DNA of 59,231 nt, filler included. It is 4 parts of 4 records of this genome, joined end to end, with 100 filler letters (N's around TTAATTAATTAA, not from the genome) between each part and the next. Parts side by side here need not be neighbours in the genome. Positions count along the whole stretch, not along the records: positions 7,425 to 35,113 come from SRR2962707_5441; 3 more parts are not named here. One strand, 5' to 3'. Positions within the stretch are counted from its first letter, which is position 1, and the number at the start of each line of letters is the position of its first letter. Made by a program: the position numbers and the translations under genes. Shown piece by piece: positions 5,429 through 25,049 of the stretch. The notes under the pieces were generated by a model. It made no database searches. It saw nothing but the letters and a program-made list of their open reading frames with translations, and had not been told where the DNA came from.

Positions 5429-6469
5429 ATGATCTCCATTACGCAGAATCTTGAGGCTCCGGCTTTCACATCCCTGCTTGATCCCGATTGTGCCACCCTT
5501 TTTCGCGACGGCGATATCGCTCCGCCCTCGACGGCCGAAACAAAGCTCGCCTGGCAGGTTGCTGCATCGCGCGGTGCCGTGAAGGACCGGCTGATGAAGG
5601 ACGAGACGGTCCGCGTTGTATTCATCGCCGCGGCGTCGGAAACAGACCCTTTGCTGAGGGATATCGCTCGAAACGCCGCGCAAATGCCCGCCCGCTCATG
5701 GCTGCACCTTGTTCTGGTGACGACCGGCCGCGTCACCCCGCTTCTCCTCACCCAATTGAGGCAGTTCACCTCCTGGTCGGTTCTCGCAGCCCCCTGCTCG
5801 AACGACGAACTGGCGGACATCATGATCGACGCCGCCGCCAAATCGGCGGACCAGCACCGGCTCGCAATGTTGTCGACGGCGATCCGCGCAGAAGCCGAGG
5901 ACCTTCTCATCCGAACGAGGAACATTGTTGGCGCGCTTCAGAACGCCGGCACGCCAGCTGCGCTGGGCAATCTCGTAAGCATCGCCGATCGTCTGAGCGG
6001 CGGAGCCATGGACCTCGAGCTTCCGCCGCAATCCACGGCGGCGGCACTACCGGCTGCTCCCGCGAGGTCTTTTGCCGAGCACGGTTTCACCCAGCCGGAC
6101 AGCTCGGACAGGAGCTGGACCCGCAACCTCATAGACCTGTGTTCGACGCGGCAGAATTACTTTCCCGATGGTCTGTTCTCGGATCCGGCCTGGGACATGT
6201 TGCTCGACCTGACCCACGCCCGGCTGTCGGGCAAGCGCGTCTCGGTCTCAAGCCTTTGCATCGCGTCCCGCGTGCCCGCGACAACGGCGCTGCGCCGCAT
6301 CGGCGATCTCGTTTCGCAAGGCCTCGCTACCCGTGTACGCGACGAAAGCGACGGCCGCCGCGTCTTCGTCGACCTGACCGAGGAGGGCTACACCCGCATG
6401 CTCGCTTATATCGAGAATGTCCGCGGAACATTCTCGGCCGAGCCCCGGACGCACCTCAGAAAGGCGTGA
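5429..6469 (+). CDS. Winged-helix DNA-binding protein with an uncharacterised (receiver-like?) N-terminal region
   Basis: C-terminal LFSDPAWDMLLDL...VSVSSLCIASRVPATTALR...DGRRVFVDLT MarR-like wHTH. Confidence 0.75.
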   Translation: MISITQNLEAPAFTSLLDPDCATLFRDGDIAPPSTAETKLAWQVAASRGAVKDRLMKDETVRVVFIAAASETDPLLRDIARNAAQMPARSWLHLVLVTTGRVTPLLLTQLRQFTSWSVLAAPCSNDELADIMIDAAAKSADQHRLAMLSTAIRAEAEDLLIRTRNIVGALQNAGTPAALGNLVSIADRLSGGAMDLELPPQSTAAALPAAPARSFAEHGFTQPDSSDRSWTRNLIDLCSTRQNYFPDGLFSDPAWDMLLDLTHARLSGKRVSVSSLCIASRVPATTALRRIGDLVSQGLATRVRDESDGRRVFVDLTEEGYTRMLAYIENVRGTFSAEPRTHLRKA

Positions 6470-7424: not shown

Positions 7425-8090
7425 AAGTGTCCCGAGAGTCCGTACATATCTACAGACGGCAACCACGTGCACATCGATTTTCCGTCACAAGATGGGGAGT
7501 AGACGAGGGCAGGTGCCAGATACGAACGCCACATAGCGCCGCCCCGAAACCCCGAGTTGAAGCGGGATCAGACCGCCGCAGAATCGCCTGAAGCTAACGC
7601 AGCAGCATCCCCGTGATGTGTTGCGCATTTGCCCGCCGACTGCACATTACAGCCCGAATCTGAAGGGGCGCGCGTCCCGAAACCTCCCAAAGGGTGCATG
7701 TAGAGGTAAAATCTCTTATTCCAATCAAACGCTCTAAATTGATCGTACTTTGTCGCTGTGTGAACTGAAGTGGCACCTGAAACGGTCGCCATTCAGGAGC
7801 GTTCAACAAACCCTCGTTTTTGGCAGGTGTTCTAACCATCACGACTGGCGCTGTTCTAAACGCCGTGCCAAACCCTTAAGATTGTTTAATGTTTTCAGAT
7901 TTCGCGTGATGGCATAAATTCTCCGCGTTGCAGGGCTCCGGTCAATCGAGGCTCTCATCATCCGCTCGCCTTGGACCTTCACGTCACATTTCTGAACTCA
8001 GAAGATGGTGCTGTGATAGATGCGGGTCCTGTGACTTTGGTGCAAAAATCACGCAGGCGTTGTGGCCGGAAGTACACACACATTCTGGCC

Positions 8091-8104
8091 TTGATTTAAA
8101 TCAA
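8091..8104 (+). promoter_or_regulatory. FNR/FnrL-type box
   Basis: Perfect TTGAT-TTAA-ATCAA; TATATT at 8127-8132 fits class II (-41.5) geometry. Confidence 0.75.
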
Positions 8105-8212
8105 TGTTCAGATGACCGGAACTGGCTATATTATATTCAGATATTCATTTTCATGCTTTTTCCTGAGGGTGATAATGTCTGAATTTTTGGCACTAGTTGG
8201 AGGGATGCTAAA

Positions 8213-10477
8213 TTGAATATGCGTAAATATATGATGGGGACAGTCACCCCGTTGGCGATTATTGCGGCGTCCTGTAGCGCCGCTTGGGCGGATACACTGG
8301 ACAGCGATCCTTTGATTTCGATTTCCGGGGACGGCTCGCTGTTTGCCGACCCAGATGAAGGTGTATTGGAACCCGGCCTTAAGGCGGTAACTTTTACATC
8401 CACGAGAGTTGGCTCAGGTGACAGCGCAACTTATGTCGATCCATTCGAAAACATTATCACTGATTTTTCGACGCTAAGCTCTCGCGGCGACGTTCCAAAC
8501 TGCTTGATGGCAAGCAACCCCGACATCTATTGCGATTCAGCATCTGGATCTGGCAAACGGATCAAGGCTTGGTTGACTGGCCGCAACCCGTTCGATATTC
8601 GGCTGCGCACGACCGCAAGCCCCGCAACGCCTTCGGTTGATTACTTTACTTTTGGTAAGGTTTCCAACTTCACCGGTGCCCGCCTGACCGGCTTTGAGCT
8701 TCAATTGCTGGATGCCGACGGGAACTCAATGGGCGCGCTGACCCCAGCAAATGCTGCTTTGTTCAACCTCAATGCCACGGCTATTGGTCTTGGATCGGGC
8801 TTGCCTGATGGCCTGTTCGGCGAAGGCGGTAACGAGGGCGAGATCGGCTTTTTCTCTGATGAGAAAGCGCGTTTGGCACTTACATCTTCAACCGATGTGC
8901 TGGCATTCGGAGAGCTAACGAACACGGCATATGTCGAAAACTTCGGCAGCTATTTCCTTGATGACTCCATGGTGCCGGACGGTTTGTTCTGGGACGATAA
9001 CACCGATCCGGATGACGAAAGCGCGCTTGTCGCATGGAACAATATTGCTGACGGCGGCTGGACTTACGGTACCTTGGACACAGCGGCAAATATTGCTGCG
9101 CGTCTTCAGGAACTGGCGACGACTTTGGGCGTCGAGGTGGCTGATCTTAATTACGTCGAAGGCGGCCTTCTTCCTGCTGACATTGTTGCGGCTGCAACCG
9201 CAAACGGCTTGTTCGCCATCGATCCGATCGAGGATTTGCGCAATGCGAACCTCAACTACACGACCACAATCGGCACCATTGACGGTGGCGAGATGATACT
9301 TCGGATGGTGCCGCAATTTGCGCCTATCGTGACAAGTGCGACAACAGACTACCAGTTCAGCACAGCAGGCTATCTTGATGCAGCGGCAAACGTACCATAC
9401 TTGGACGTGGGCAATGCAGCAGCCTATCAAACAGCGATCACTGAGCTGCTTGCAATGGATGCGGCTGATAGATCACTGGCATTGGACAGCACGGGCTTTG
9501 GTTATGCAGCAGCATTTTCAAGCGTGGCGTCCGAAGCTGCACGTGGCCAGGTTTCTGCAGTCACGAGCTTTGCGCCATTGGCGGTAAGTACGGATGGTCC
9601 AGCAGCCGTTTCGACCAGAGGCACGGGCAATATTTGGTCCATGACCGATGGAATGTACGGCCTTGCGTCGATCGGCGGGTCGAGTTCAAACTTCGATGCG
9701 ACAAGCACGTCTTTGGGCTACGATGTTGATATCACATCCTTCACAGTCGGCGTCGAAAAGCTCATCGATGGCTCCAACTCTTCGTTGGGTCTGGCACTGG
9801 GTTACATCAACGGTTCTGCAAGTGCGGATAACGGTTTGGGCGATGTAGACGCAGATGGTTACACCCTGACAGCGTTCTCACGGACCCGTTTCGGCCAAGG
9901 TGGATTGGTGCAAGCGTTGATCGGCTATCAGGACCTGTCGTATGACTCCTCCCGATATGTAATGGGTCAGACGGCAACCGGTACCGCAGATGGCTCGCAG
10001 GTCTTTGCGGCGGTGAAAGTCGATTACATGAAAGACAGAGGAGCATTCAAGTTCGGTCCTACTGCGTCGCTCGAATACTATGACAGCTCCGTCGATGGCT
10101 TTACCGAGACTGGTGCAGGCATCTGGAACCGGACCGTGGGCGGGCTTTCGTCAGACACTTTCCTAGCATCGATCGGTGTTCGCGGAGAGTATGCGTTCCA
10201 CAGCGGCGGGAATGAAAACCGTGTGGTCGGCAGCGTCAAATATACAAAGGCGTCCGGTGACGATCTTGTCGTACAAAGCGGCTTTGTAGGTTTGCCCGGT
10301 GCCGCCTCTACCGTGGCCGGACTTGACGAAGACCTGATCGATGTGGCCTTCGGATTTGACAGCGTGTTGTCGTCAACATCCTCCAATCAGGTTGTCCTTC
10401 AAGCCGGTTATCGTGGCAGCTTTGGTAAAGACTATGACAGCCAAGGCGTACATATCGGGATCAAGATGGCCTTCTAA
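8213..10477 (+). CDS. Autotransporter-domain surface protein with a choice-of-anchor-F-like passenger
   Basis: Signal peptide ending AAWA; acidic passenger with NCLMA...CD...SGKRIK and KVSNFTGARLTGFELQL; C-terminal amphipathic beta-barrel ending in F. Confidence 0.8.
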   Translation: MNMRKYMMGTVTPLAIIAASCSAAWADTLDSDPLISISGDGSLFADPDEGVLEPGLKAVTFTSTRVGSGDSATYVDPFENIITDFSTLSSRGDVPNCLMASNPDIYCDSASGSGKRIKAWLTGRNPFDIRLRTTASPATPSVDYFTFGKVSNFTGARLTGFELQLLDADGNSMGALTPANAALFNLNATAIGLGSGLPDGLFGEGGNEGEIGFFSDEKARLALTSSTDVLAFGELTNTAYVENFGSYFLDDSMVPDGLFWDDNTDPDDESALVAWNNIADGGWTYGTLDTAANIAARLQELATTLGVEVADLNYVEGGLLPADIVAAATANGLFAIDPIEDLRNANLNYTTTIGTIDGGEMILRMVPQFAPIVTSATTDYQFSTAGYLDAAANVPYLDVGNAAAYQTAITELLAMDAADRSLALDSTGFGYAAAFSSVASEAARGQVSAVTSFAPLAVSTDGPAAVSTRGTGNIWSMTDGMYGLASIGGSSSNFDATSTSLGYDVDITSFTVGVEKLIDGSNSSLGLALGYINGSASADNGLGDVDADGYTLTAFSRTRFGQGGLVQALIGYQDLSYDSSRYVMGQTATGTADGSQVFAAVKVDYMKDRGAFKFGPTASLEYYDSSVDGFTETGAGIWNRTVGGLSSDTFLASIGVRGEYAFHSGGNENRVVGSVKYTKASGDDLVVQSGFVGLPGAASTVAGLDEDLIDVAFGFDSVLSSTSSNQVVLQAGYRGSFGKDYDSQGVHIGIKMAF

Positions 10478-10504
10478 TTAACCAAGCCATCCTACTAACC
10501 ATGT

Positions 10505-10531
10505 AAACGGCGTCTAGTTTAGACGCCGTTT
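10505..10531. terminator. Hairpin/terminator after the autotransporter
   Basis: AAACGGCGTCTA-GTT-TAGACGCCGTTT, perfect 12-bp stem. Confidence 0.7.
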
Positions 10532-10760
10532 GCGATTCCAGCGTATATCTTGCCAGCCGGAAGCTTTCAGTAAGCTGCGAGAGTGCGACCAGAATGCTTG
10601 GCGAAGAACGCAAATCCGGAGCGACGATGTCGGATAAGGTCCGCGCTAAATCGGGTATTTGCAAAGGCTGGCATTTCATTGGTGCGGACACGGCACCACG
10701 CCCAAAAACGGTGCCGCAGATCAGCGCAATCATCTAAAACGAAAAAAAACAATAACTTGG

Positions 10761-10775
10761 GCGGCAGTTTGCCGC
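10761..10775. promoter_or_regulatory. Possible RegA/PrrA/RegR box
   Basis: GCGGC-AGTTT-GCCGC (GCGGC-N5-GYCGC form) about 100 bp upstream of the response regulator. Confidence 0.35.
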
Positions 10776-10873
10776 ACACGCAATATTTCTGCCGCATTCC
10801 ACCTATAGTTCGAAACGTGCTATAGATCGTGCAAGACGCCGCCCTTGGACGGCGTCATGTTGAAGGATGTGAA

Positions 10874-11839
10874 ATGAAAATACTTGCTGTTGACGACGAT
10901 GAAGTCATCCGCGGACTTTTAGCCGAGATTTTAAAGATCATCGGATTTACGGATGTCACCTTCGCGGCGTCAGGGAAAGAAGCCCTGAATATTTTGCAGG
11001 CAGCAAAAGATCCTTTCGAGTGTTTCCTGCTGGATATTGAGATGCCGGGTATGACGGGCATCACCTTGGTCACGCACATCCGGAAAATGGCTGAATACGC
11101 AAGAACACCAATACTGATGGTCACGTCAATGGCTGAACGTGTGTATGTCGACAACGCGTTTGCCGCCGGTGCCACTGATTATGTGAACAAGCCAATTGAT
11201 GTCGGCGAGATGCACGCACGATTGCAGCTGGTTTCCGAACTGGTGGCCGAGCGGAAGAAAGCCAAAGGGGCCCACGCGGGTGGTGCCGATGTGGCGCTTG
11301 CCCCGGCAGACACAAGCGAGCGTCTGCATATCGAGAATATTGACGGTGTCATCGACTATCTTTCGCTCGAAAACTATTTGCTGCAACTGTCGCGATTGTC
11401 GTTGTTCGGCAATTGCGCCTTTGGCGTCGCGATCAAAGATTCAAAGCACCTGTTCCAAGGGCTAAGCAGTTACGAGTTTCATTCCGCCATCACCGATGTC
11501 GCAGAGGCATTGTCGGAATGTTTGAAACCACACCGGTTTTTCCTGGCACATATCGGGGGCGGCGATTTCGCGGGGATCAGTGACGCCGGGCGCCAGTTTG
11601 ATGCCAGCGAATTCGAAACCGCAGTGAGCGACAAGCTGCGAGAGATGGATCTTTACTATTCTAACGGTCGCCCGATGATGGTTCATCTCGCGGTCAGCGA
11701 TCCGATCCAGTTGGACTGGCGGTCTTCGCGCAGTTCGGTCAACGCCCTGCTCGAGGCGGTAGGACAGGCAGAGCAAAAGACCCTTTCGCCGGCGGATGCA
11801 CTGATCGAGATTCAGCCGCCTGTTAAGCCAGGGCACTAG
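10874..11839 (+). CDS. Response regulator: receiver domain plus degenerate GGDEF-like domain
   Basis: KILAVDDD, LLDIEMP, MVTS, YVNKP intact; HIGGGDF in place of GGDEF. Confidence 0.85.
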   Translation: MKILAVDDDEVIRGLLAEILKIIGFTDVTFAASGKEALNILQAAKDPFECFLLDIEMPGMTGITLVTHIRKMAEYARTPILMVTSMAERVYVDNAFAAGATDYVNKPIDVGEMHARLQLVSELVAERKKAKGAHAGGADVALAPADTSERLHIENIDGVIDYLSLENYLLQLSRLSLFGNCAFGVAIKDSKHLFQGLSSYEFHSAITDVAEALSECLKPHRFFLAHIGGGDFAGISDAGRQFDASEFETAVSDKLREMDLYYSNGRPMMVHLAVSDPIQLDWRSSRSSVNALLEAVGQAEQKTLSPADALIEIQPPVKPGH

Positions 11840-11858
11840 TAAAAAGGGTAGGTACCCA

Positions 11859-12179
11859 ATGAATGGCGATTTTCTTGCTGGCATGGAAAAGGTGCGGGTA
11901 AAGTTTTTATCCGAATTATCGGTGCGCAAGCAGTCGCTGAATGACGCCTATTCCACGCTGGTGGCCGAGGGTGCAGATGATAGCGTGATCCAGGACATAT
12001 CCTGGATCGCACATAAGGTGTCGGGATCCGCCGCTACCCTTGGCTTTAAAGAACTGGGCCGGCAGGCGTCGCGGACGGAGCGGTTGATACTCCAATCCGC
12101 GGGCGACCAAACCCTTGATGATGGTGCATTACGGGTCGAAGTGGTCGAGCTTCTCCGATTGATGGATGACCCCAGCTGA
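11859..12179 (+). CDS. Stand-alone Hpt phosphotransfer protein
   Basis: AHKVSGSAATLGF Hpt motif; 106-aa helical protein. Confidence 0.85.
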   Translation: MNGDFLAGMEKVRVKFLSELSVRKQSLNDAYSTLVAEGADDSVIQDISWIAHKVSGSAATLGFKELGRQASRTERLILQSAGDQTLDDGALRVEVVELLRLMDDPS

Positions 12180-12310
12180 CCCGGACAACGGACCACCCTG
12201 CGGTAGCACCGAACCCGACCTTCACCATGCGCCTAGGCCTTTGCCTGTGAAGGTAGGGAGAATTTCACCGGCCTATCAAACTGTGGGTTGGGGGCAGGGG
12301 CCCCGTTATC

Positions 12311-13678
12311 TTAGCCCGCAGATTTCAACGTCACTTTGAACGTCGTTCCCATACCCAGTTCGCTATCGTATTCGATGGTGCCGCCATGGCCCTCAACGAT
12401 ACGCTTTGAGATCGACAGCCCCAGACCTGTCCCTTGGAATTTGCGCTGGTCACTTGAATCAATCTGACCGAATTCTTCAAAGATCTGGGTCTCACTGCCT
12501 TCGGGGATCCCGATGCCATTATCTGACACCGACAAGACAAGGTTTTCACCTTCGCTGGCCAGAGACACATGTACAATGCCACCCGTCTCCGAAAACTTGG
12601 CTGCGTTGGAAAGCAGGTTCGTAACCACCTGACCTAAACGCTTTTTGTCACCCAGAACAAAATGTTTTTCCTGCGGAATATCAACGTCTACCTCGACGTT
12701 CAGTGTTTTGGCATAGGGTTGAAAGTTATGGATGTTCGCGGTCACGAGGCTGCCCATATCAACCATTTCCAAGTTTAGCGTAAACTTGCCCGCATCCGAG
12801 GATTGCAACAAAAGCAGATCACCGACGAGGTCGATCAGACGGCTGCTGTTGCTGCGGGCAATGCCCAGCAGGCGGGACATCTTGGCGGGAACTTCCCCGG
12901 CAGAGCCCACATCGATAAGATCAAGCGCGCCCTTGATCGACGTCAAAGGCGTGCGCAGTTCATGGCTGACCGTGGCGAGGAAGCGTGTTTTCGCCTCGCT
13001 TGCGGCCAGCGCGTTCTTGTGTTCGATCTGAAGGGCGAGGCGGCTTTTGAGCAGAACCGTGTAGCCCAAGATAAAGGTGCGCGCGAGTTCAAGAACAAAG
13101 CCCAATACAAACAATACCGTAAAGAGATTGAGCCAAATCTCGGACTTGAGCGGTGGCCTGACGATCCACACGTCGCGAATGGCAATATACAGAATTGCAG
13201 CCACATAAATGGCGAGCCGCGAAGCGAGGACAGGAATAAACTGGTGGTTGTTCATAGTCGCAAAAATTGAGGCCGAAACAAGCAAAAATAAAGGCAGGAA
13301 GTGCCCGCTGTCGGTGCCCTGCTGAATGGCGATCGAGACGCAAAACAACGAGATGGTTACCGCGCTCAGAATCGTCCCGAAGTAGATGTGGTAAAACGTC
13401 CTCCGCGGCTTCATCGTCTTTGACGCGCTGGTCGCTAGAACGTGGCGCATTAAAAGGGTGTCATATGTCTCGCAAATACCAATCGCTATAAGGAAAAATA
13501 GCGCCACCTTCGGGTCATAGTAAAAGCCCGCAAGACCCAGTGCTGACAGGTAAATGATGGCTCTTTGCCAGAACAGTTTTTGTCCAACAATTGCATAGTC
13601 ACGCAACCGTTTCAAAACGGAGCGGTGTTCGGCCACATTTATGCCTGGCAAGGATATAAGGTCTTTAGAGTCTACCAT
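12311..13678 (-). CDS. Membrane sensor histidine kinase (about 6 TM, HisKA, HATPase; no receiver)
   Basis: FLATVSHELRTPLTSI, NLLSNAAKF, DNGIGIP, GTGLGL; hydrophobic N-terminus; start placed at ATG 13678. Confidence 0.92.
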   Translation of the reverse strand: MVDSKDLISLPGINVAEHRSVLKRLRDYAIVGQKLFWQRAIIYLSALGLAGFYYDPKVALFFLIAIGICETYDTLLMRHVLATSASKTMKPRRTFYHIYFGTILSAVTISLFCVSIAIQQGTDSGHFLPLFLLVSASIFATMNNHQFIPVLASRLAIYVAAILYIAIRDVWIVRPPLKSEIWLNLFTVLFVLGFVLELARTFILGYTVLLKSRLALQIEHKNALAASEAKTRFLATVSHELRTPLTSIKGALDLIDVGSAGEVPAKMSRLLGIARSNSSRLIDLVGDLLLLQSSDAGKFTLNLEMVDMGSLVTANIHNFQPYAKTLNVEVDVDIPQEKHFVLGDKKRLGQVVTNLLSNAAKFSETGGIVHVSLASEGENLVLSVSDNGIGIPEGSETQIFEEFGQIDSSDQRKFQGTGLGLSISKRIVEGHGGTIEYDSELGMGTTFKVTLKSAG

Positions 13679-13836
13679 ACTTGAGCGTCCCGTCAGCCCT
13701 GGAGGGCATCTACTAAAAAAAACATGCGACCATACTACTTTGGGTGGAAATTTTGTTGCGAATATGGCAGAAACATGGCTGTATACCATTTATTAACTTT
13801 TTTCGGTCTCGTAACCAAGGCGTTAGGTAGTAAAAT

Positions 13837-14544
13837 ATGGGGTTTCATAAGGTAAAGGCGATTGGTGAGGCTGAATCGGTAGAGATCAAGGTTTCTTCCA
13901 GCCGCAAATCGACCGCACATAAGGTGGATCCGCCGCTGCCGTCGATGGTAACCAGAATTGAAGAAACCGTTGTATCTGCCAATAACCAGCACCACTATGG
14001 GCAGCTTTACGCGGATAACCTTCGGGCGCGCAAAGCGGTATTCATTGATCAGAAATCGTGGGATCTGCCCCAAACCGACGGGATGGAGTTCGATCAGTAC
14101 GACACACCGCAAAGCCGTTCGGTCGTGATCCACGAATACGGGCGCGTATTGGCGGGTGTCCGGCTTTTGCCGACGACAGCGCGCTGTGGATGCTATTCAT
14201 ATATGCTTCGGGATGCGCAGCTTGGGTTGCTGCCTAATATCCCCGAGCACGTGCTTTATGAGCGCGCACCGGTGATGCCCCATGTCTGGGAGGCAACACG
14301 GCTTTTCCTGACCAAAGACGAACCCGCCGAGCGCCGCCTGTTTATTCAAACCAAACTGATCAAGGCAATGGCGCGTGCCGCTACTGAGCAGGGCGCAACC
14401 CATGTGATCGGCATCGTGCCAGCTGTTTTCCAGCGTTGGATGAACCGTCTGGGGCTTAACGCGCTACCGATGGGGCCAAAGCTGGACATTAGCGGCGATC
14501 ACACGCAGGCCGCCGTAATGCATGTGGCTGGCCAATCATCTTAG
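13837..14544 (+). CDS. luxI: Acyl-homoserine-lactone synthase (LuxI family); start may be ATG 13945
   Basis: RKAVFIDQKSWDL, EFDQYD, GVRLLPT, SYMLRDAQLGLL, VWEATR signature residues. Confidence 0.9.
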   Translation: MGFHKVKAIGEAESVEIKVSSSRKSTAHKVDPPLPSMVTRIEETVVSANNQHHYGQLYADNLRARKAVFIDQKSWDLPQTDGMEFDQYDTPQSRSVVIHEYGRVLAGVRLLPTTARCGCYSYMLRDAQLGLLPNIPEHVLYERAPVMPHVWEATRLFLTKDEPAERRLFIQTKLIKAMARAATEQGATHVIGIVPAVFQRWMNRLGLNALPMGPKLDISGDHTQAAVMHVAGQSS

Positions 14545-14790
14545 GTCTCAAGAGAGCAGTAACTGGGTAGTCGCCTGCGAGCGTCCTGCATGAGCAGAAG
14601 AAATTATTGAGAACCTTGAGTCAGCTCTTCAAGGCTAAAAGCATGCGTGCCGCGTTGGAAAATCACATAAGCTAAATGGGCGCTCGAACCATCTTGTGGG
14701 TGATTTGCTAGCTAAAGGGTCGCTAGGACGAAACCGACCGTACTTCGGTAGGCGCAAAACCGGCATAGTATTGTATATGATCTGTAAAAG

Positions 14791-14899
14791 TGGTGCCCAG
14801 GGGCGGATTGCATACATCTAGGAAAAACAATGATTTGTGAAAAAGTGGGGCACTAAATTTGATCATAGTTTATTGGGAGATTTCGAATTGTTGTCCCAC
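14791..14899 (-). mobile_element. att-site remnant: duplicated tRNA 3' end (probably tRNA-Leu) plus putative integrase arm sites
   Basis: Minus strand TCCGCCCCTGGGCACCA (14791-14807) without the rest of a tRNA; AT-rich flank with imperfect inverted repeats GTGGGGCA (14845-14852) and TGTCCCAC (14892-14899). Confidence 0.6.
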
Positions 14900-15600
14900 G
14901 GGTTTGTATGGCTGGCTCGCTCGTGCTGAACTAAGCGTCGGGTCTCATTGGGGCGTGAGGTGGCTTTTTTTTGGGGGGGGGCAAGCTGATGCGGAGCTAT
15001 TTTCAAAAATCCGCTGATAGGATAGCCCCTTGGGCAGCTCGAGAAATAAAGTAGCTGGGGATCCGTGACTTACTGACATTGTTGCTTGCGCGCGCCGCAG
15101 ACAATACCCACTTGAACAGTTGTGCTGTTTACCCCGCATTGTGCTTTCAACGCGGGGTGATGTCCTTGAACGGCGCAGTGAAGGGCGGGAAGCCGTCATT
15201 TGCTTCACGATGAGCCAAGAACACTCTCTTAGCAAATAACGCTATTTGGACACATAAGCGCTGACGTCAGACAGCAGAGTGCAATACGCATCGGTTACCG
15301 CCACGGACGCAGGTGCCATCCACATGCGAATTCAAGCGACGCCAAGATCGGCGTTTGACGGGGCGTGTCGCTATCTCCAAGACAACCTAGCGTACCTGTC
15401 GCGGAATTCTCCTCAAACATCCAATCGAAACCTGACTAATCAACAGACCCATGACATGTCTACCGACCTGTCCCAGGCCAACGCAGAAATATCTGCTGAC
15501 CGCTAAGTTATAAAAACCCTACCTTCGTCGTGCGTTTCGTGAACCGACAGATCGCGGAGACCATGCGCAGCGCGTTATAAGTGACTTTCTACGCGGGTAT

Positions 15601-16356
15601 CTAGGGTTTGGACGCACTGATTGCGTAGCGATGTTCGGAGCGACGCAGAAGTGATTTTCGCCAATCAAGCTGTGTGGCTTGCGCGCGGTGAATTGGTGCG
15701 AGCCGTGTGTCGATAACAATCTCGTCGTATCCGGTTGAACGTAACAATGCAGCCACTTGATCCGCGCGTGCCCCAGCACTGAAATGTACCTTGGCAAGGA
15801 TATCCTTGTGACGGGCAGCATTGGCCGCGGACATTGCGCTGTGCGATCCATCTGGCATAATCCACTGAAATATCCTGCCCAGCAGGCTGCGGGATACAAA
15901 ATCGCCATCCACAATCAACAATTTTCCTCCTGGCTTGAGCACACGAAACCATTCGGCAAAGGCGGCCGCAGGGTCCACCAATGTCCAGACTAGATGGCGC
16001 GTGACGATCACGTCCATGCTGTCCGAGGGCAGCGTCGTGCGCTCTGCGTCGGCCTGCAGAAAGATCACGTCCGGAAGTTTTCCCCGCGCACGTTCCAGCA
16101 TCGGTTCCGCCCAATCAAGACCCGTAACAACAAAGCCCAACCGCTGACACAAACGCGCGATTTCTCCCGTGCCTGACGCAAGATCGAGAAGTGCGCGCCC
16201 GTCTCCATCGCTAAGATGACGCCGAAACAGAACCTCCCACTCGGCCATTTCGGTACCGTCATCTATGCGGTGGCCAGGATCATCGTCAAAAGTGGCCGCG
16301 CGGTCCGACCAATAGTCGCGGATATCGTCGCGCAGGTTTCGGTTAGTTGGCGTCAT
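15601..16356 (-). CDS. Class I SAM-dependent methyltransferase
   Basis: LLDLASGTG, DVIVTRHLVWTL, RVLKPGG. Confidence 0.9.
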   Translation of the reverse strand: MTPTNRNLRDDIRDYWSDRAATFDDDPGHRIDDGTEMAEWEVLFRRHLSDGDGRALLDLASGTGEIARLCQRLGFVVTGLDWAEPMLERARGKLPDVIFLQADAERTTLPSDSMDVIVTRHLVWTLVDPAAAFAEWFRVLKPGGKLLIVDGDFVSRSLLGRIFQWIMPDGSHSAMSAANAARHKDILAKVHFSAGARADQVAALLRSTGYDEIVIDTRLAPIHRAQATQLDWRKSLLRRSEHRYAISASKP

Positions 16357-16391
16357 GATGTTACTCCAATAGTGTTATCGTCGTTTTATTT

Positions 16392-16435
16392 AGTTGATTA
16401 AAAGTGTCAACTTTTTAATTGACTGAAACAGTATG
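16392..16435. promoter_or_regulatory. Iron-responsive TGA-N9-TCA operator(s) (Iron-Rhodo/IRO-like)
   Basis: AGTTGA-TTAAAAGTG-TCAACT palindrome (16392-16412) and partial TTGA-CTGAAACAG-TATG (16419-16435) in the divergent promoter. Confidence 0.65.
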
Positions 16436-16478
16436 GAATACTAGGCGGTCTGGAGAGATCATTCTTCAGGAGCTTTAC

Positions 16479-17615
16479 ATGACCCTTCGTCCACTTCTCG
16501 GTGCCACTGCGCTGAGTCTTTTCGCAGCCAGCCTTGTGCAAGCCGATCCCATCACCCTGACCGACATCGCCGGTCGCGAAGTTACGGTCGACGCACCGGT
16601 CGAACGCGTGATCCTGGGCGAGGGTCGGCAGGTCTTCTTTACTGCAGTATTGGACAGTGAAAACCCATTCGACCGCGTCGTGGGTTGGCGCGACGATTTC
16701 CGCCAGGCCTCACCGGAAAGCTATGACATCTACGCCGAGAAATTCCCGCAATTGAAGGACATCCCGACCTTTGGCGGGTTCAAAGACGGGTCGTTTGACA
16801 TCGAACAAGCGGTGGCGTTGAATCCCGACGTGCTGATCATGAACCTTGAATCCAAGGCCGCGACAGACGAGGCAGGTTACGAGGCTAAGTTGGCCAAGGT
16901 CGGCATCCCTATCGTTTACGTAGACTTTCGTGAAAAGCCGTTCGAGCACACCACGCAGTCTATGAATATCGTCGGGCAACTCTTCGGCGAAGAAGACAAA
17001 GCCGCGGAATTCCAGACCTTCTACGAAGAACAGATGGCCCGCGTAACTGATGTGATCGCAGCGCAGCAGGATCTGCAGCGCCCGCTGGTCTTCGTCGAGC
17101 GCGCCGGCGGCTATTCCGAAGATTGCTGCATGTCCTTTGGTGACGGCAACTTTGGCCGGTTCGTGGAACTGGCAGGGGGCACCAACATGGGATCAGAGTT
17201 TATTCCCGGCACCTTTGGCACGGTGAACGCCGAACAAGTCATCGCCTCGGACCCCGATCAGATTGTCGTCACGGGTGGCAATTGGGACGCTTATGTACCC
17301 GGCGGCGCATGGATTGGCATGGGGCCGGGCTCGGACATGGCCGAAGCAAACCGCAAACTCGCAGCTCTGATGGAACGGCCTGCTTATACAGGCGTGAAAG
17401 CAGTTAATAGCGGGCAGGTCCACGGCATTTGGCACCAATTTTATAACTCGCCCTACAGCTTTATCGCCGTCCAACGGCTGGCAACATGGCTTCACCCTGA
17501 GCTTTTTCCCGATCTTAACCCCGAAGCAACGCTGAAAGAGCTGCACACCCGGTTTTTGCCGGTGGATTACAGCCCGGGTTATTGGACCACTCTGGGCGAC
17601 ACAGCGGGCAACTAA
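16479..17615 (+). CDS. Iron-siderophore/cobalamin-type ABC substrate-binding protein
   Basis: Signal peptide, TLTDIAGREVTV, ERVILGEGR, EQVIASDPD, IWHQFYNSP. Confidence 0.9.
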   Translation: MTLRPLLGATALSLFAASLVQADPITLTDIAGREVTVDAPVERVILGEGRQVFFTAVLDSENPFDRVVGWRDDFRQASPESYDIYAEKFPQLKDIPTFGGFKDGSFDIEQAVALNPDVLIMNLESKAATDEAGYEAKLAKVGIPIVYVDFREKPFEHTTQSMNIVGQLFGEEDKAAEFQTFYEEQMARVTDVIAAQQDLQRPLVFVERAGGYSEDCCMSFGDGNFGRFVELAGGTNMGSEFIPGTFGTVNAEQVIASDPDQIVVTGGNWDAYVPGGAWIGMGPGSDMAEANRKLAALMERPAYTGVKAVNSGQVHGIWHQFYNSPYSFIAVQRLATWLHPELFPDLNPEATLKELHTRFLPVDYSPGYWTTLGDTAGN

Positions 17616-17675
17616 GTCCGTTTGCATCTAAACATGGCGGCCCTTAACGGGCCGCCAAATGCCATTGGGGACACC

Positions 17676-18743
17676 ATGATAACCGCCGAATTACATACAT
17701 CCGAATCCGCGAGCGTACAAAGTTACCGCGGGCTGGTGGCCCGCCGCATCGCGATCCTTGCAGGTCTAACCATAGCACTGGTGTTGTCGGTGGCGGTGGA
17801 CGTTTCGCTGGGGCCTGCGCGCTATGCCTTATTGGACGTTCTGAAAACGCTTTTTGCGCCGGGGGCCGCCGATTTGCAGATACGCGTCGTCGTCTGGGAT
17901 ATTCGAATGCCGATGGCGTTGCTCGCTGTGACAGTCGGGGCAAGCTTGTCGCTGGCCGGCGCGCAGATGCAGACCATTTTGGCAAACCCGCTGGCCAGCC
18001 CGTTTACCTTGGGTCTTTCGGCGGCTGCAAGCTTCGGGGCGGCGTTGGCGATGGTACTGGGCGTTTCATTGTTTCCCGGCGCTATTTCATTAATGGTTCC
18101 AATCAACGCTTTTGCCATGGCAATGGCGGCTTCTCTTTTGATTTTTGGCCTGTCGACACTCAGAGGCGTGACTGTAGAAACGATCGTGTTACTGGGCATC
18201 GCGTTGGTGTTCTCGTTTAATGCAGCTCTGGCATTGCTTCAATATTTCGCCTCCGAACAAGCGCTTTCTGCGGTGGTTTTCTGGACCATGGGAAGCCTGT
18301 CCAAGGCCACTTGGGGGAAGGTCGCGGTGACCGCGATTATTCTCGCGATCTGCACGCCGCTATTCGCCCGCCGTGCTTGGGCGCTGACTGCGATCCGGCT
18401 GGGCGAGGTTCGGGCCTCGGCCATGGGGGTGCCCGTGAAACGGTTGCGCCTCGAGGCACTGGTGCTGGTCTCGGTGCTGGCCGCGGTGCCCATAAGTTTC
18501 GTCGGCACGATCGGTTTCATCGGCATCGTCGGACCCCATGTGGCGCGCCTGCTGTTGGGCGAAGATCAACGGTTCTTCCTGCCCGGTTCGATGCTGTCGG
18601 GCGCAGTGATCCTTTCGGCCACGTCAGTTTTATCCAAGGCGATCCTGCCGGGTGCCGTGCTTCCTATTGGGATCATCACCGCCCTTGTAGGGGTGCCGTT
18701 CTTTGCAGCACTGATCCTGACGAAGGGACGCAAATCATGGTAA
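17676..18743 (+). CDS. FecCD/BtuC-family ABC permease
   Basis: DIRMP, QTILANPLASPFTLG, GTIGFIGIVGPH. Confidence 0.92.
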   Translation: MITAELHTSESASVQSYRGLVARRIAILAGLTIALVLSVAVDVSLGPARYALLDVLKTLFAPGAADLQIRVVVWDIRMPMALLAVTVGASLSLAGAQMQTILANPLASPFTLGLSAAASFGAALAMVLGVSLFPGAISLMVPINAFAMAMAASLLIFGLSTLRGVTVETIVLLGIALVFSFNAALALLQYFASEQALSAVVFWTMGSLSKATWGKVAVTAIILAICTPLFARRAWALTAIRLGEVRASAMGVPVKRLRLEALVLVSVLAAVPISFVGTIGFIGIVGPHVARLLLGEDQRFFLPGSMLSGAVILSATSVLSKAILPGAVLPIGIITALVGVPFFAALILTKGRKSW

Positions 18744-19498
18744 GTTTGACGCTGGACAAGGTTGGCGCGCGTTATGGTCGGCACCAAATCCTGTCTGATG
18801 CCTCGGCCAGTTTGCAAGGTGGTGTGTTGACTGCATTGGTTGGGGCCAATGCGGCCGGAAAATCAACCCTATTTCGTCGCATCGCCGGGCATCTACGTGG
18901 TGCCGGTGACGTCCGGTTAGAAGGGGCCCATGACCATGACCTGCGTTATATGCCCCAAGACACCGGCATGACCGCCGCGCTAACGGTCTATGAATCGATC
19001 ATATTATCGCTGAAGCAAGGTAGCGGCGGCTGGCGTCTGTGTGCTGAGGAACTGCGCGCCGTTGACGAGACCGTGCGCCGCTTCAACATCACGCATCTGG
19101 TCGATCAACAACTGTCCGAACTTTCCGGTGGGCAGCGACAGGCGGTATCAATCGCGCAAACGCTCGTCAGCCAGCCCAAAGTTGTTCTCATGGACGAGCC
19201 AACCTCTGCGCTTGACCTCAACCGCCAGTACGAAGTGTTAGAGTCACTGCGCCTGTATGCCGAGGAAACCCAAGCGGTGTTGATTTTGGCGATGCACGAC
19301 TTGAATCAGGTAATGCGCTGCTGCTCTACGACCATAGCACTGGCGGAAGGGCGCACCCTTGCCTGCGGCCCCACCCTCGACGTGTTGACCCCTGCCCTGA
19401 TCCGTCGCCTTTACGGCATCGATAGCCGGGTAGAACGGTGCTCACGCGGTAACCCTGTAATGATCGTGGACGGCCCAGCTGCACAGGATGCGATCTGA
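18737..19498 (+). CDS. Iron-chelate ABC ATP-binding protein
   Basis: GANAAGKST, LSGGQRQ, LMDEPT, MHDLN. Confidence 0.92.
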   Translation: MVSLTLDKVGARYGRHQILSDASASLQGGVLTALVGANAAGKSTLFRRIAGHLRGAGDVRLEGAHDHDLRYMPQDTGMTAALTVYESIILSLKQGSGGWRLCAEELRAVDETVRRFNITHLVDQQLSELSGGQRQAVSIAQTLVSQPKVVLMDEPTSALDLNRQYEVLESLRLYAEETQAVLILAMHDLNQVMRCCSTTIALAEGRTLACGPTLDVLTPALIRRLYGIDSRVERCSRGNPVMIVDGPAAQDAI

Positions 19499-19650
19499 TA
19501 GCCTGTGGTGCTGCCTGAGGATCATTTGTCGTATGGGAGGAAAGCCGCCATGTTCCAGCTGTCGGGCTCCACGTGCCAATTGTCGACATGCAAAGCGGGA
19601 TTTTCCGGTCTCTGCGGATCGCACCAAGGCAACCGCGCCAGACAAATCCG

Positions 19651-20616
19651 TCAGCTGTTCAAATCAACTTTCAGGCCCGCCCGTTCGCAACGCACCAAGC
19701 TTCCGTTGATTTCGCGCAGAACCTGGAGCCGCGTCCGGCAACTGTCCAATACATCAGGGCAGCGTGGGGCGAATAGGCATCCAGTCCGGGGTGCGAATGG
19801 GTCAGCCGCCGTCGCGCCAAGCTTTAGGTCGGGCAATCCCATGCCCGGTTTCGGAGCCAAGGTCGCCGCCAAGAGTGCACACGTATAAGGGTGTTGAGCA
19901 GCCTCGAATAATACCTCGGTCCGTGCCTCTTCTACCTTTTCACCAAGATACATGACTGCAACCCGGTCGGCCAAATGCTCCACTACCGCGAGATCATGAC
20001 TGACAAAGATCATGGTTAAATCAAGCTCGGCCTTAAGGCTCAGCAGCAGATTGATAATTTGGGCCTGCACGGACACGTCCAAGGCAGAGGTGGGCTCGTC
20101 GCATATCAGCACGCTCGGTTTCAGGATCAGGGCACGGGCGATAGCGACGCGCTGGCGTTGCCCACCAGACAATTCACCCGGATAGGCATCGGCCAGACGG
20201 GACGGAAGGCCCACAATATCCATCATCCGGGCGACTTGTGTTTTTTCTCCGGTGCCGCCATGCAGTCGCAAGGGTTGCGCGATGAGAGTCCGAATACGCT
20301 TAACCGGATTAAGCGAGGCATTCGGGTTCTGAAACACCGGCTGGATAAGGCGCACACGCTCGGCGACCGGCATCGCACCTATTGGCTGACCAGAGATCAG
20401 GATTTCGCCGGAATCGGGCTGTGCCAATCCCAACATGATACTGACAGCCGTGCTTTTGCCGCAGCCGGATTCGCCGACGAGCCCGAGTGTTTCACCCTTG
20501 GCAACCTCAAGCGAAAGGTTGTTTACCGCCAGCAGTTCCTCGGTCTGGCCAAGTAACCCACGGCGCAGGCGGAAGGTTTTACGGATGTCGGTCATTTGGA
20601 TCATAGGATGGATCAT
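19651..20616 (-). CDS. Peptide/opine/nickel-family ABC ATPase (DppF/OppF-like)
   Basis: GESGCGKST, LSGGQRQR, CDEPTSALD, HPYT, GCLFAPRC. Confidence 0.92.
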   Translation of the reverse strand: MIHPMIQMTDIRKTFRLRRGLLGQTEELLAVNNLSLEVAKGETLGLVGESGCGKSTAVSIMLGLAQPDSGEILISGQPIGAMPVAERVRLIQPVFQNPNASLNPVKRIRTLIAQPLRLHGGTGEKTQVARMMDIVGLPSRLADAYPGELSGGQRQRVAIARALILKPSVLICDEPTSALDVSVQAQIINLLLSLKAELDLTMIFVSHDLAVVEHLADRVAVMYLGEKVEEARTEVLFEAAQHPYTCALLAATLAPKPGMGLPDLKLGATAADPFAPRTGCLFAPRCPDVLDSCRTRLQVLREINGSLVRCERAGLKVDLNS

Positions 20617-21602
20617 TGTAACGCCTCGCCTGGGGCTGCCATAAAGCACTCGACAAACCCGTCTGGTCCATGTGCGTAGCGTGGGACGGGGCTACTGGCA
20701 CATTCCTCACTCGCCAGTTCGCACCTGTCGCGGAACGCGCAGCCGTGCATCGTACCGATGAGCCCCGGAACCCGCCCCGGGATTGCCGGCAATTGGCTAC
20801 CGCGTTTTGTCACGCCCGGCACGGGGATCGCACGCAGCAGACCTTGAGTATAGGGGTGCAACGGTGCACGAAACAGCTCGTTGGCAGGGGCCAATTCCGC
20901 AATGCGCCCCGCGTACATCACAGCAACATCGGTCGCGATTGCGGCAACGACGCCAAGGTCATGCGTAATCAAAAGCATTGACAGCCCCAGATCCGATTGC
21001 AATTCGCCCAGCAAGCGCAGGATTTGAGCCTGAATGGTCACATCCAAGGCCGTGGTTGGTTCATCCGCGATCAGCAGACGCGGGCGGCCCATCAGCGCAG
21101 ACGCGATCATAATGCGCTGGCGTTGGCCACCCGAGAATGCGTGCGGGTATTGGGTCAGTCGAGCAGCTGGATTGGATATCCCGACACGGTCCAGCATTTC
21201 AATGGCCCGTGCGTCTGCCGCCGAACGGTCGAGCCTCTCTGAGCGCATCACGCCTTCGGTCAACTGTCGTCCGATGGTCAGCGTCGGGTTGAGCGAGCTT
21301 GTGGGATCCTGAAAGATCATGGCAACGTCACGTCCGCGCAATTGCGCGAGTTTAGATTGCGGGTTGTGGGTCAGATCCTGACCAGCCATGTCGAAGCGAT
21401 CGCATGTCACCGATGCATAGCGCGGCAGCAGGCCCATTAGCGCCATTGCCGTCAGCGACTTGCCGCAGCCAGATTCGCCAACTAGACAAAGCGTATGTCC
21501 GCGTGCGATCTCCAGATCGACTCCGCGCACGGCGTTCAACAGCCCCCTATCGGTCGGCAGTGAGACCGACAGGTTTTTGATATCCAAAAGTAATTCAGTC
21601 AT
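20613..21602 (-). CDS. Peptide/opine/nickel-family ABC ATPase (DppD/OppD-like)
   Basis: GESGCGKS, FSGGQRQR, ADEPTTALD, HPYT. Confidence 0.92.
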   Translation of the reverse strand: MTELLLDIKNLSVSLPTDRGLLNAVRGVDLEIARGHTLCLVGESGCGKSLTAMALMGLLPRYASVTCDRFDMAGQDLTHNPQSKLAQLRGRDVAMIFQDPTSSLNPTLTIGRQLTEGVMRSERLDRSAADARAIEMLDRVGISNPAARLTQYPHAFSGGQRQRIMIASALMGRPRLLIADEPTTALDVTIQAQILRLLGELQSDLGLSMLLITHDLGVVAAIATDVAVMYAGRIAELAPANELFRAPLHPYTQGLLRAIPVPGVTKRGSQLPAIPGRVPGLIGTMHGCAFRDRCELASEECASSPVPRYAHGPDGFVECFMAAPGEALQ

Positions 21603-22471
21603 CTTCTTGCAGGCCCCGTAATGTCGCGCATGCCGTCTCCGAACAGGTTGACGGCCAATACCAGCAGGCAGAGCGCCGACCCCGGCAAAGCGATCAACCA
21701 CGGATCGAACAGGATGTTGTCCCGGCCTTCGGAGATCATCAGCCCCCACGACGGAGTGGGCGGTCGCACGCCAAGACCAAGGAAGGAAAGCGCGGCCTCG
21801 AGCAAGATGACGTTCGCGACCTCGAGCGTCACCACGACAAGGATCATGCTTTGCATGTTCGGCAATATCTCAAGGAACAGAATCCGGGCGCGGCTTGCGC
21901 CAATGGCCCGCAGCCCATGAATGAACTCTTGATGTCGCAGGCTTTGCGTCGCTGCCCGAGCGACGACAGCGAACCTGTCCCACAGTAGCAACCCCAAAAC
22001 GGTGATCAGTGTGGTCAGCGACGCCCCCCCAAGGGCCACCGCTGCCAAGGCGACCAGAACAATCGGCAGCGAGAGCCGCGTGGTAATGGCAAAGCTGATC
22101 ACCATATCGACCCAGCCGCCAAAATAGCCAGCAAGCAGGCCCAACGTCACGCCGATCATGCCAGAGACCAGCGTAACACCCAAACCAACGCCAAGAGAAA
22201 TCCGCGCGCCGTAGATCATACGTGAGAGGTAGTCTCGACCCAAGTGATCCGTGCCCAGCAGGTGCTCGGGCACAGACCGGTCGTGCCAGAACGGTGGCAG
22301 CAAGCGCCGAGTCAGGTCCTGTGCAACGGGATCGTGCGGCGCAAGCAGTGGGGCGAATACTGCAACCAGCACGATCAGCAGCAGGATCGATCCACCGATC
22401 ATAACACCGGAGTTGCGTAAAGATTTTTGCCACACCGTAGCGGGCCGGGTTTCAGCGGAAATGTCGGACAT
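21599..22471 (-). CDS. ABC permease (DppC-like)
   Basis: HLLGTDHLGRD, LSFLGLG, PTPSWG, NLFGDG. Confidence 0.92.
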   Translation of the reverse strand: MSDISAETRPATVWQKSLRNSGVMIGGSILLLIVLVAVFAPLLAPHDPVAQDLTRRLLPPFWHDRSVPEHLLGTDHLGRDYLSRMIYGARISLGVGLGVTLVSGMIGVTLGLLAGYFGGWVDMVISFAITTRLSLPIVLVALAAVALGGASLTTLITVLGLLLWDRFAVVARAATQSLRHQEFIHGLRAIGASRARILFLEILPNMQSMILVVVTLEVANVILLEAALSFLGLGVRPPTPSWGLMISEGRDNILFDPWLIALPGSALCLLVLAVNLFGDGMRDITGPARR

Positions 22472-22472
22472 T

Positions 22473-23393
22473 TTACGCAGCTCCTCTGAGACGGGGGTCA
22501 AGCACAGCGTTCAGGATATCGGCGCAGGTTGTCAGTGCGACATAGAGCAACGAAAGGATCAGAATGATCGCCTGAACCACCGGCAGGTCGCTGCGCAGCA
22601 AAGATTCCCAAGCCAGCCGCCCCAGTCCGTTCAGCGCAAAGACGCTTTCGATCACGATAGAGCCGGACAGAAGCAAACCCAGTTGCACAGCGGCCAGCGA
22701 TACCAATGGCAGAACGGCATTGCGCAATGCATGGCGATAGATAACCGTCGTCATTGGCAATCCTTTTGCCCGTGCCGCGCGAATGTAGTCGGTTGCCAAA
22801 ACGTCGATCATCCCCGACCGGGTGATCCGCATCATTGCGGGCATCGCATAATAGCTCAGCACGATCACCGGTAGGATGTAACCCTGCCATGTCTCCGCGC
22901 CGGAAATAGGCACCCAGCCGTACCAGACCCCAAACACGACTATCGCCATGAGGCCAAGCCAAAAGCTTGGGATGGCTTGGCCGGTCACGGCCAGAACAAG
23001 TGCTGCACGGTCGACCCAACCATTGGGACGCAGTGCCGCCGCTACCCCGAGTGGAACCGCAACCACCAGGGCCAGCAAAAAGGACATCACACCGAGCTTT
23101 AAAGTCACGCCGAAACGGTTCCCGATAATCTCGGTGACCGGAATATTGAAATAAATGCTTTGGCCAAAGTCACCCGTCAGGGCGTTGCCGACCCAATCGA
23201 GATACTGGATCAAGAGCGGGCGATCAAAGCCGTACGCGACACGAATAGCTTCGGCATCTTGTGCCCGACCACCGGCACCAGCAATCGCGATTGCCGGATC
23301 GCCAGACAGAAACATCAGGGCGAAACTGATCGCCGATACGGTTACGCAGACGCAAAAGGCGACGAACAGCCGTCTTAAAATGAATGAAACCAT
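22473..23393 (-). CDS. ABC permease (DppB-like)
   Basis: GDFGQS, DYIRAARAKGL, HALRNA, DPRLR. Confidence 0.92.
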   Translation of the reverse strand: MVSFILRRLFVAFCVCVTVSAISFALMFLSGDPAIAIAGAGGRAQDAEAIRVAYGFDRPLLIQYLDWVGNALTGDFGQSIYFNIPVTEIIGNRFGVTLKLGVMSFLLALVVAVPLGVAAALRPNGWVDRAALVLAVTGQAIPSFWLGLMAIVVFGVWYGWVPISGAETWQGYILPVIVLSYYAMPAMMRITRSGMIDVLATDYIRAARAKGLPMTTVIYRHALRNAVLPLVSLAAVQLGLLLSGSIVIESVFALNGLGRLAWESLLRSDLPVVQAIILILSLLYVALTTCADILNAVLDPRLRGAA

Positions 23394-24996: not shown

Positions 24997-25049
24997 GTGA
25001 TCCTCTGTTGGTTGGGAGCGATAGTATTTTCACGGCCGGTTTTCCGGCG

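Follow-up and report, generated by a model that had tools for sequence, protein, structure and literature searches.

A luxI gene of a marine Sulfitobacter-type bacterium is accompanied by the gene for a six-helix membrane histidine kinase, and sequence and genomic context suggest that this kinase probably senses the predicted long-chain acyl-homoserine lactone (AHL) of its neighbour and passes phosphate to a regulator in which a receiver is joined to a GGDEF-like domain. More generally, N-acyl amino-acid esters seem to be what this kinase family detects. A broader reading, which we put forward more tentatively and at slightly below even chances, is that these Rhodobacterales kinases are receptors for N-acyl amino-acid esters that act independently of LuxR and LuxN. 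Most of them would read the AHLs of a captured LuxI, some would have switched to methyl esters produced by FeeM together with a methyltransferase, whose genes would be the missing NAME genes, and all would feed a roseobacter relay with catalytically dead GGDEF proteins at its end. Alphaproteobacteria are assumed to sense AHLs by way of LuxR, and the receptor for the signals of orphan LuxI proteins in roseobacters was listed as an open question in 2013 (PMC3824088). The locus offers a concrete candidate receptor, found in 39 of the 301 sampled genomes of the family, with a short list of conserved residues. For NAMEs, the same family suggests both a candidate receptor and candidate genes. If this reading is true, LuxR-based reporters and genome surveys overlook part of the chemical signalling in abundant marine bacteria.

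The luxI locus and its proteins

The genes lie on contig SRR2962707_5441 (27.7 kb), which occupies positions 7425-35113 of the window, i.e., of the whole stretch of 59,231 nucleotides that was analysed, with N spacers on either side. All four genes are intact, in the layout originally described. The luxI gene (13837-14544, plus strand; PF00765, 235 aa) is divergent from the gene of a non-hybrid membrane histidine kinase (12311-13678, minus strand; PF00512 and PF02518, 455 aa), with 158 bp between them (13679-13836), and the kinase converges on a response regulator (10874-11839, plus strand; PF00072, 321 aa) and a stand-alone Hpt (11859-12179, plus strand; PF01627, 106 aa). The latter two are separated by 19 bp and likely form one operon. 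The claim that the contig has no luxR also held, as a family scan found no luxR-type or autoinducer-binding family among its 70 ORFs of at least 100 aa. An assembly artefact was excluded, as positions 7425-21536 match a contig of the isolate Sulfitobacter sp. CW3 with 98.5% identity over 14.1 kb; a chance adjacency of luxI and the kinase was ruled out by the recurrence of the pairing in relatives. Scans for promoters and terminators gave no more hits than expected by chance. No sigma-70-like site was found in the intergenic region, in which a segment 40-100 bp ahead of luxI is partially conserved in five relatives.

In the LuxI protein, which carries an N-terminal extension of ~40 aa, PF00765 scored 54.1 bits against a cut-off of 24. 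Residues R65, F69, W75, E84, D86, D89, R109, E152 and R155 are invariant in 36 homologues, and we take them to be the LuxI catalytic signature. The score in the curated AHL synthase models was low, at 31 bits where the cut-off is 250, and the nearest relatives are LuxR-paired LuxI proteins of 195 aa with ~52-55% identity. The product is predicted to be a long-chain AHL.

The kinase, counted from the ATG at 13678, is as long as its homologue P0001, to which it is 91% identical. A six-helix membrane domain (~residues 25-215) is followed by HisKA (H239) and HATPase, and it is non-hybrid, as a receiver domain (PF00072) is missing. The predicted architecture of about six transmembrane helices without a large periplasmic domain agrees with both AlphaFold models, in which the kinase core follows a run of six long helices joined by loops no longer than 7 residues (pLDDT of 90.6 in the TM-only model of the sensor). 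A hydropathy scan gave five peaks above 1.5, with helix 1, which bears Q38/R39, falling under the cut-off. The conserved polar residues that line the bundle include R39, E70, D73, N143/N144, R154 and D169. The sensor had no family match in Pfam or NCBIfam and none among the PDB sequences, no NCBIfam sensor-kinase model was matched by 55 sensor domains at E<=5, and Foldseek with the predicted sensor returned nothing at E<=0.001; this is no proof of a new fold. The best natural fold matches were the six-helix anchors of membrane cyclases (class III), with Z 13.8 (rmsd 2.7, 174 aligned) for 8sl3, 11.6 for 6r3q and 11.2 for 8wcn, although helical bundles can reach such Z by common arrangement; first place was shared by a designed cage, a Z near 13 being possible for any helical bundle. 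PMC4821796 ties the CqsS-type six-helix design to cyclase anchors and reports that the CqsS receptor is able to substitute for one. Across the class, the sensor was present in two of 351 sampled genomes, both of which were also in the family-level sample, while a search of 1.84 billion representatives gave 109 matches, and 24 of the 26 scanned were kinases. Fifteen matches were weak (22-39 bits); each of the eight that were fetched was a hybrid kinase, 680-780 aa long, with neither luxI nor FeeM near it. No experimental test of the kinase was found in the literature covered, from which subscription journals were mostly absent.

Conservation and exchange of the synthase partner

Among the best 80 genome loci of the LuxI-seeded set, the kinase lay within 7 kb of luxI in 64; the others were 13 luxR-paired loci of the sister type and three that were interrupted by contig ends. 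The kinase-seeded sample of 301 taxon-drawn genomes of the family contained 41 strong kinases, 35 of which adjoin an acyl-amide synthase, namely luxI in 30 cases (within ~3 kb) and FeeM with a methyltransferase in five; the other six had no synthase in the fetched 13-15 kb. The link was kept across divergent (44 of the 64 LuxI-seeded loci), tandem and convergent layouts. The luxI-kinase linkage is conserved, whereas the luxI-HK-Hpt-RR neighbourhood is not: all four genes were together in only seven of the 41 taxon-drawn loci, six of which had an additional single-domain receiver, and adjacent in 12 of the 64 LuxI-seeded loci, while the closest relatives retain luxI and the kinase only. The conserved unit is the synthase with the kinase, not the four-gene relay. 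The LuxI and sensor-domain trees were congruent (86 pairs, rho 0.82, 24 shared splits, one conflict), and the same agreement is expected from physical linkage alone. Co-evolution of LuxI and the sensor beyond linkage was considered and rejected, since the initial partial values (0.74 versus 0.24) were not robust; after the removal of two clades, the agreement of LuxI was 0.69 with the sensor and 0.67 with the kinase core.

FeeM occurred in eight of the 301 family genomes and adjoined the kinase in five of them. In metagenomes, the kinase was adjacent in 23 of 25 close FeeM loci (the other two were truncated) compared to none of 54 distant ones. The FeeM-linked kinases fall in two separate places within the tree of luxI-linked kinases and are accompanied by two unrelated methyltransferase types, while eight kinase-linked LuxIs were placed inside the luxR-paired LuxI clade (FastTree only). 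Judged from these sequence placements, the trees indicate that the kinase has swapped its synthase partner repeatedly, as would suit a receptor whose ligands are N-acyl amino-acid esters. An NNH motif is near-invariant in 86 luxI-linked kinases, compared to YNS in 24 of 26 FeeM-linked kinases, which represent one origin only. On a plasmid of Loktanella salsilacus, FeeM and a methyltransferase stand beside the kinase; at one FeeM locus (L123) the methyltransferase is present and the kinase absent, and at another (L084) a luxR gene lies directly behind the kinase. FeeM and a methyltransferase beside the kinase would make up the gene set required for NAMEs; the window has no FeeM. For the NAME synthase, no candidate genes had been found as of 2024 (PMC11580390).

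The regulator, the Hpt and the proposed signal path

The regulator has a receiver domain with D54 and K106 and a second domain with a degenerate GGDEF fold, whose family profile (A4) matches diguanylate cyclase structures (best E 1.4e-4). In contrast to the diguanylate cyclase response regulators of the PleD/WspR type, it is devoid of the GG[DE]EF active-site motif; the motif at 228 reads GGGDF, and GG[DE]EF is kept in none of 61 aligned members. Neither a DNA-binding nor an AAA+ domain was found in the regulator. The Hpt has its phospho-acceptor at H52, a histidine that is invariant in 25 aligned members, and matched no NCBIfam family at E<=0.01. The regulator family was present in all 39 kinase genomes and in 29 of the other 262, as counted with a profile built in part from loci of the same genomes, and the single-domain receiver family in 22 of the 262 genomes without the kinase. 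In the 12 kinase genomes that had no match to the single-domain receiver, the regulator lay within 1.4 kb of the kinase, with no Hpt in the fetched region. Of five close relatives checked, four had the RR-Hpt pair away from the luxI-kinase locus, and the single-domain receiver family was likewise encoded elsewhere in the genome in four of five; close relative G307 had luxI and the kinase but no match to the regulator or to the single-domain receiver. Since a His-Asp-His-Asp relay requires two receivers and the window locus has one, a self-contained relay is unsupported. The signal probably passes from the kinase to the regulator, and the Hpt would provide the connection to a shared relay. The original prediction of a four-gene cassette with the kinase as the AHL receptor is partly supported. 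The receptor is favoured by genomic context, i.e., a kinase beside luxI in three orientations, congruent trees and, often, another acyl-amide synthase where luxI is missing, while the self-contained four-gene relay is not supported, given the few complete loci, the RR-Hpt pair located elsewhere and the one receiver.

In the mechanism that we propose, LuxI would make the AHL, as its family and intact signature residues suggest, and the lipophilic signal would enter the membrane and bind within the six-helix bundle. Binding may alter the kinase versus phosphatase activity of H239, in either direction, through the long helix 6, and phosphate would be exchanged between H239 and D54 of the regulator, a step suggested by the operon context in relatives. 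As the GGDEF-like domain has no catalytic motif, its output is probably protein contact or nucleotide binding, rather than c-di-GMP synthesis or DNA binding. The Hpt may join a single-domain receiver from another locus in a shared relay, which other kinases of the PAS and CHASE types also seem to feed.

Alternative readings and known systems

At least one autoinducer-binding LuxR is encoded elsewhere in all 39 kinase-bearing genomes, and LuxR proteins are present in five of five named relatives; the receptor role of the kinase is therefore one that we infer. The AHL could be read by such a LuxR, with the kinase sensing another cue of the membrane or the host and controlling the synthase or being co-regulated with it. 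The shared promoter region of the divergent loci and the luxR directly behind the kinase at one FeeM locus would suit this explanation, as would the report for Ruegeria KLH11 that its solo synthase, SscI, acts on a different LuxI/R pair (PMC4288048). A mere upstream regulator, however, would have no clear reason to be re-paired several times and always with an enzyme whose product is an N-acyl amino-acid ester. A DNA-binding domain is missing from the neighbouring regulator, and the luxI-linked and FeeM-linked kinases differ in the NNH and YNS motifs (the latter of one origin only). We regard this explanation as unlikely, though the likeliest of the alternatives. That the kinase reads the product of its synthase but the LuxI clade makes some other N-acyl amide than a standard AHL seems improbable to us. 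The low score in the curated models and the FeeM-type synthases served by the same kinase family speak for it, and S. pseudonitzschiae F5 has a second luxI, perhaps the orthologue, for which PMC7693213 could assign no product. Against it, PF00765 is over its cut-off, the signature residues do not vary among the homologues, and luxR-paired LuxIs are interleaved with the clade.

We give even less credit to a complete LuxN-LuxU-LuxO-like relay, from the kinase to the Hpt to the regulator, that was inherited as one cassette. In its favour, the window and other LuxI-seeded loci have the four genes side by side, and the window regulator groups with the Hpt-coupled regulators of the Roseovarius four-gene loci. 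However, His-to-His transfer would be required from a kinase that has no receiver domain, complete loci are few and mostly contain an extra single-domain receiver, close relatives carry the RR-Hpt pair at another site, the regulator and the receiver also occur in genomes without the kinase, and searches for the LuxN sensor, for LuxU and for an AAA+ domain of the LuxO type found nothing.

The luxI-kinase pairing and the analogy to LuxN that underlie the preferred reading, a kinase that senses the AHL of its neighbour, are already in print. Cude and Buchan (2013; PMC3824088) described kinase genes lying upstream of orphan luxI genes and suggested a LuxN-like role, with no test reported in the part of the paper available. 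What is new here is a sensor that matches no Pfam or NCBIfam family and is not LuxN-like, the FeeM partners and the counts across 301 genomes. In PMC3824088, the kinase-associated orphan luxI genes of Sulfitobacter and Roseovarius form the I-delta group (topologies H, I and J), and the window luxI, with an adjacent histidine kinase and no adjacent luxR, shares this gene arrangement. Roseovarius nubinhibens ISM is given an orphan luxI of topology I in that text; its luxI at locus L028, which may be that gene, is linked to this kinase and 57% identical to the luxI of the window. Topologies H and I are co-directional in that source, whereas L028 and the locus on the S. pontiacus plasmid (L222) are divergent. 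In the same portion of the paper, the sensor domain is undefined and the word "Hpt" is absent.

As in LuxM/LuxN (AinS/AinR), an AHL synthase stands beside a putative receptor membrane kinase and an Hpt belongs to the pathway. LuxN is a hybrid kinase with nine helices, whereas the window kinase is non-hybrid with six helices and its synthase is of the LuxI type. Homology to LuxN was rejected, as model NF041945 matched the orthologue in genome G002 at 446-681 of 839 only (the kinase core), scoring 29 bits where the cut-off is 1550, and the LuxU model NF041948 matched neither of the cassette Hpts of G005 and G302. Unlike LuxO, the window output is a degenerate GGDEF protein and not a sigma-54 activator with an AAA+ domain. 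The design in which a six-helix sensor kinase adjoins the synthase of a lipophilic signal is common to CqsA/CqsS and LqsA/LqsS. The ligands of CqsS, a hybrid kinase, and LqsS are alpha-hydroxyketones made by a PLP enzyme; the neighbour in the window is not a PLP-dependent synthase but a PF00765 protein, with PF21926 in some relatives. The rpoA-adjacent 195-aa LuxI of the Rhodobacterales differs in that a luxR of 203 aa immediately precedes it and the kinase is absent. These LuxR-paired LuxIs, presumably the CerI/GtaI/LuxI1 lineage, are interleaved with the kinase-linked LuxIs on the tree.

Gene content of the locus and its synthase

On the contig that carries the finding (7425-35113; one of the four that N spacers join in the window), Pfam matches were obtained for all four of the genes that had been proposed, i.e., a response regulator (10874-11839), an Hpt protein (11859-12179), a histidine kinase (12311-13678, minus strand) and a LuxI-family synthase (13837-14544). 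The original prediction had also stated that luxR is missing here, and none of the contig ORFs of at least 100 aa matched a LuxR-type family. The gene layout is real because a Sulfitobacter sp. CW3 contig is 98.5% identical to 7425-21536 and shares its gene order. Directly upstream of the regulator lies a choice-of-anchor F autotransporter (8213-10477), which among the other luxI loci searched was matched only in the CW3 contig; at locus L088, a different very long gene ends just upstream of the kinase. The remaining content (15601-35043) is ordinary: a methyltransferase, iron-type and peptide ABC transporters, RraA, RidA, LysR, an ornithine cyclodeaminase, an M20 hydrolase, a TRAP transporter, a patatin and a YHYH protein.

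The synthase retains all nine of the residues that are invariant across 36 homologues, which we take to be the LuxI signature. Most of the kinase-linked LuxIs are extended at the N terminus by approximately 35-80 aa (13837-13944 in the window), and a motif in this extension is partly conserved; their luxR-paired relatives are approximately 195 aa long and lack the extension.

Linkage of the kinase to synthases and apparent exchange of partners

Among the best 80 of the 603 stretches matching luxI, the kinase was found within 7 kb in 64 (46 divergent, 11 tandem and 7 convergent), a small luxR directly upstream, in place of the kinase, in 13, and the remaining 3 end at contig edges. The kinase is present in seven records of complete Sulfitobacter pontiacus plasmids, and the one examined carries luxI and the kinase only. 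In a contig from a viral collection (L001, 3577-6597), a receiver, the kinase and luxI are flanked by an integrase-like gene and Mu-like transposase genes, as assigned by eye.

Counting from the kinase, 301 genomes drawn from the family were searched with the sensor profile; 41 matches, spread over 39 genomes, were strong and a further 15 were weak. luxI lies within approximately 3 kb of 30 of the 41 strong kinases; a FeeM-type N-acyl amino acid synthase adjoins five, each time with a methyltransferase (soluble and SAM-dependent in three, membrane PEMT/ICMT-like in two), and neither synthase is near the other six. FeeM is rare in this sample (8/301 genomes). In a metagenome scan that was seeded with the first FeeM type (80 of 576 loci kept), the kinase was adjacent in 23 of the 25 close loci and the methyltransferase was likewise present in 23 of the 25, the misses being contig ends; one further partial locus was truncated, and the kinase was found in none of the 54 distant loci. 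This shows conservation within one clade, not independent origins. At L084, where a methyltransferase, FeeM and the kinase follow one another, the gene immediately after the kinase is a small luxR (5531-6160).

Trees of LuxI and the sensor, built with FastTree and rooted at the midpoint after removal of duplicates and of two fragments, agree over 86 pairs (rho 0.82; 24 shared splits, one conflict), which shows co-inheritance. An agreement of LuxI with the sensor beyond that with the kinase core was lost after two clades were removed. It appears that the kinase has changed its partner on several occasions, in each case for an enzyme set that would give an N-acyl amino acid with a closed carboxyl (lactone or methyl ester), because FeeM-linked kinases occupy two places among the luxI-linked ones and eight kinase-linked LuxIs (L051, L095-L097, L099-L101 and L120), for which a second capture of luxI by the kinase family is probable, fall inside the luxR-paired LuxI clade. 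From this apparent repeated re-pairing, the strongest argument available, we infer that the kinase reads the synthase product.

The sensor domain and the kinase as a probable receptor

As originally proposed, the kinase has about six transmembrane helices; in predicted structures these are long, have very short loops, and the last one is continuous with the HisKA domain. No receiver domain was found in it using Pfam. The sensor had no match among Pfam families, NCBIfam sensor-kinase models or PDB sequences, yet it contains numerous invariant polar residues. The NNH motif (143-145) is nearly invariant in 86 luxI-linked sensors; 24 of the 26 FeeM-linked sensors have YNS instead, and since the other two, which by our reading are of the PEMT type, keep NNH, the change is a single event. 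Among natural structures, the predicted sensor was most similar to the anchors of membrane cyclases, which likewise have six helices: 8sl3 (Z 13.8, rmsd 2.7, 174 aligned), 6r3q (Z 11.6), 8wcn (11.2) and 7yzi (9.3). However, a designed cage shares the top rank, and these Z values are within reach of helical bundles. A Foldseek search with the predicted sensor gave no match, and we treat the likeness to cyclase anchors as a lead. Hybrid kinases of 680-780 aa (L125-L132) matched the sensor domain weakly and had no synthase nearby; in two near-identical metagenome contigs (L148 and L149), the kinase frame is split in two by sequencing error or real decay.

The best explanation, which on the genomic evidence we judge moderately probable, is that the kinase senses the predicted long-chain AHL of LuxI and passes phosphate to the neighbouring regulator. 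Against this reading count a LuxR elsewhere in all 39 kinase-bearing genomes, the six kinases without a synthase nearby and one FeeM-methyltransferase locus without the kinase. The locus is a case of the published arrangement of an orphan luxI with an upstream kinase; excerpts of Cude and Buchan (2013, PMC3824088) suggest, without a test, systems similar to LuxN and give an identity to LuxN of at most 26%. The locus would most likely work like LuxN or CqsS, although its kinase is not a LuxN member (the LuxN model matched an orthologue in genome G002 in the kinase core only) and its output is not LuxO-like. The six-helix CqsS sensor is able to regulate a cyclase, according to an excerpt of PMC4821796. 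[quoted passage not shown] No experimental study of this kinase was found in the literature searched, which mostly excludes subscription journals.

The regulator and a proposed wider relay

Profile comparison showed that the C-terminal domain of the regulator is diguanylate cyclase-like, and the catalytic motif is kept in none of the 61 family members. Of the 41 kinases, 30 have the regulator, 12 have an Hpt and 14 have a single-domain receiver at a distance of up to 6 kb. All four genes occur together at only 7 of the 41 loci. The conserved unit is luxI with the kinase, and we see the locus as a putative pair of synthase and receptor that is connected to a wider relay, rather than, with the original prediction, as a closed four-gene cassette. 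The regulator family is present in 39/39 kinase genomes versus 29/262 others and the single-domain receiver family in 27/39 versus 22/262, counts for which 11-15 candidates were scored per genome using profiles built partly from the same loci. In the 12 kinase genomes without the single-domain receiver, the distance between the kinase and a regulator is at most 1.4 kb and Hpt is absent from the vicinity, which points to direct transfer of phosphate from the kinase to the regulator.

At L009, L017, L018, L021, L028, L108 and L114, up to four paralogous receiver-degenerate-GGDEF genes cluster around the cassette, often accompanied by Hpt, the single-domain receiver and further kinases. These clusters apparently represent an undescribed roseobacter relay, on which our literature search found no paper. 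Five close relatives have luxI and the kinase alone; four of them carry a regulator-Hpt pair elsewhere in the genome, and a search of the fifth (G307) matched neither regulator nor receiver. The regulator of the window clusters with the Hpt-coupled regulators of Roseovarius loci that have the same four genes.
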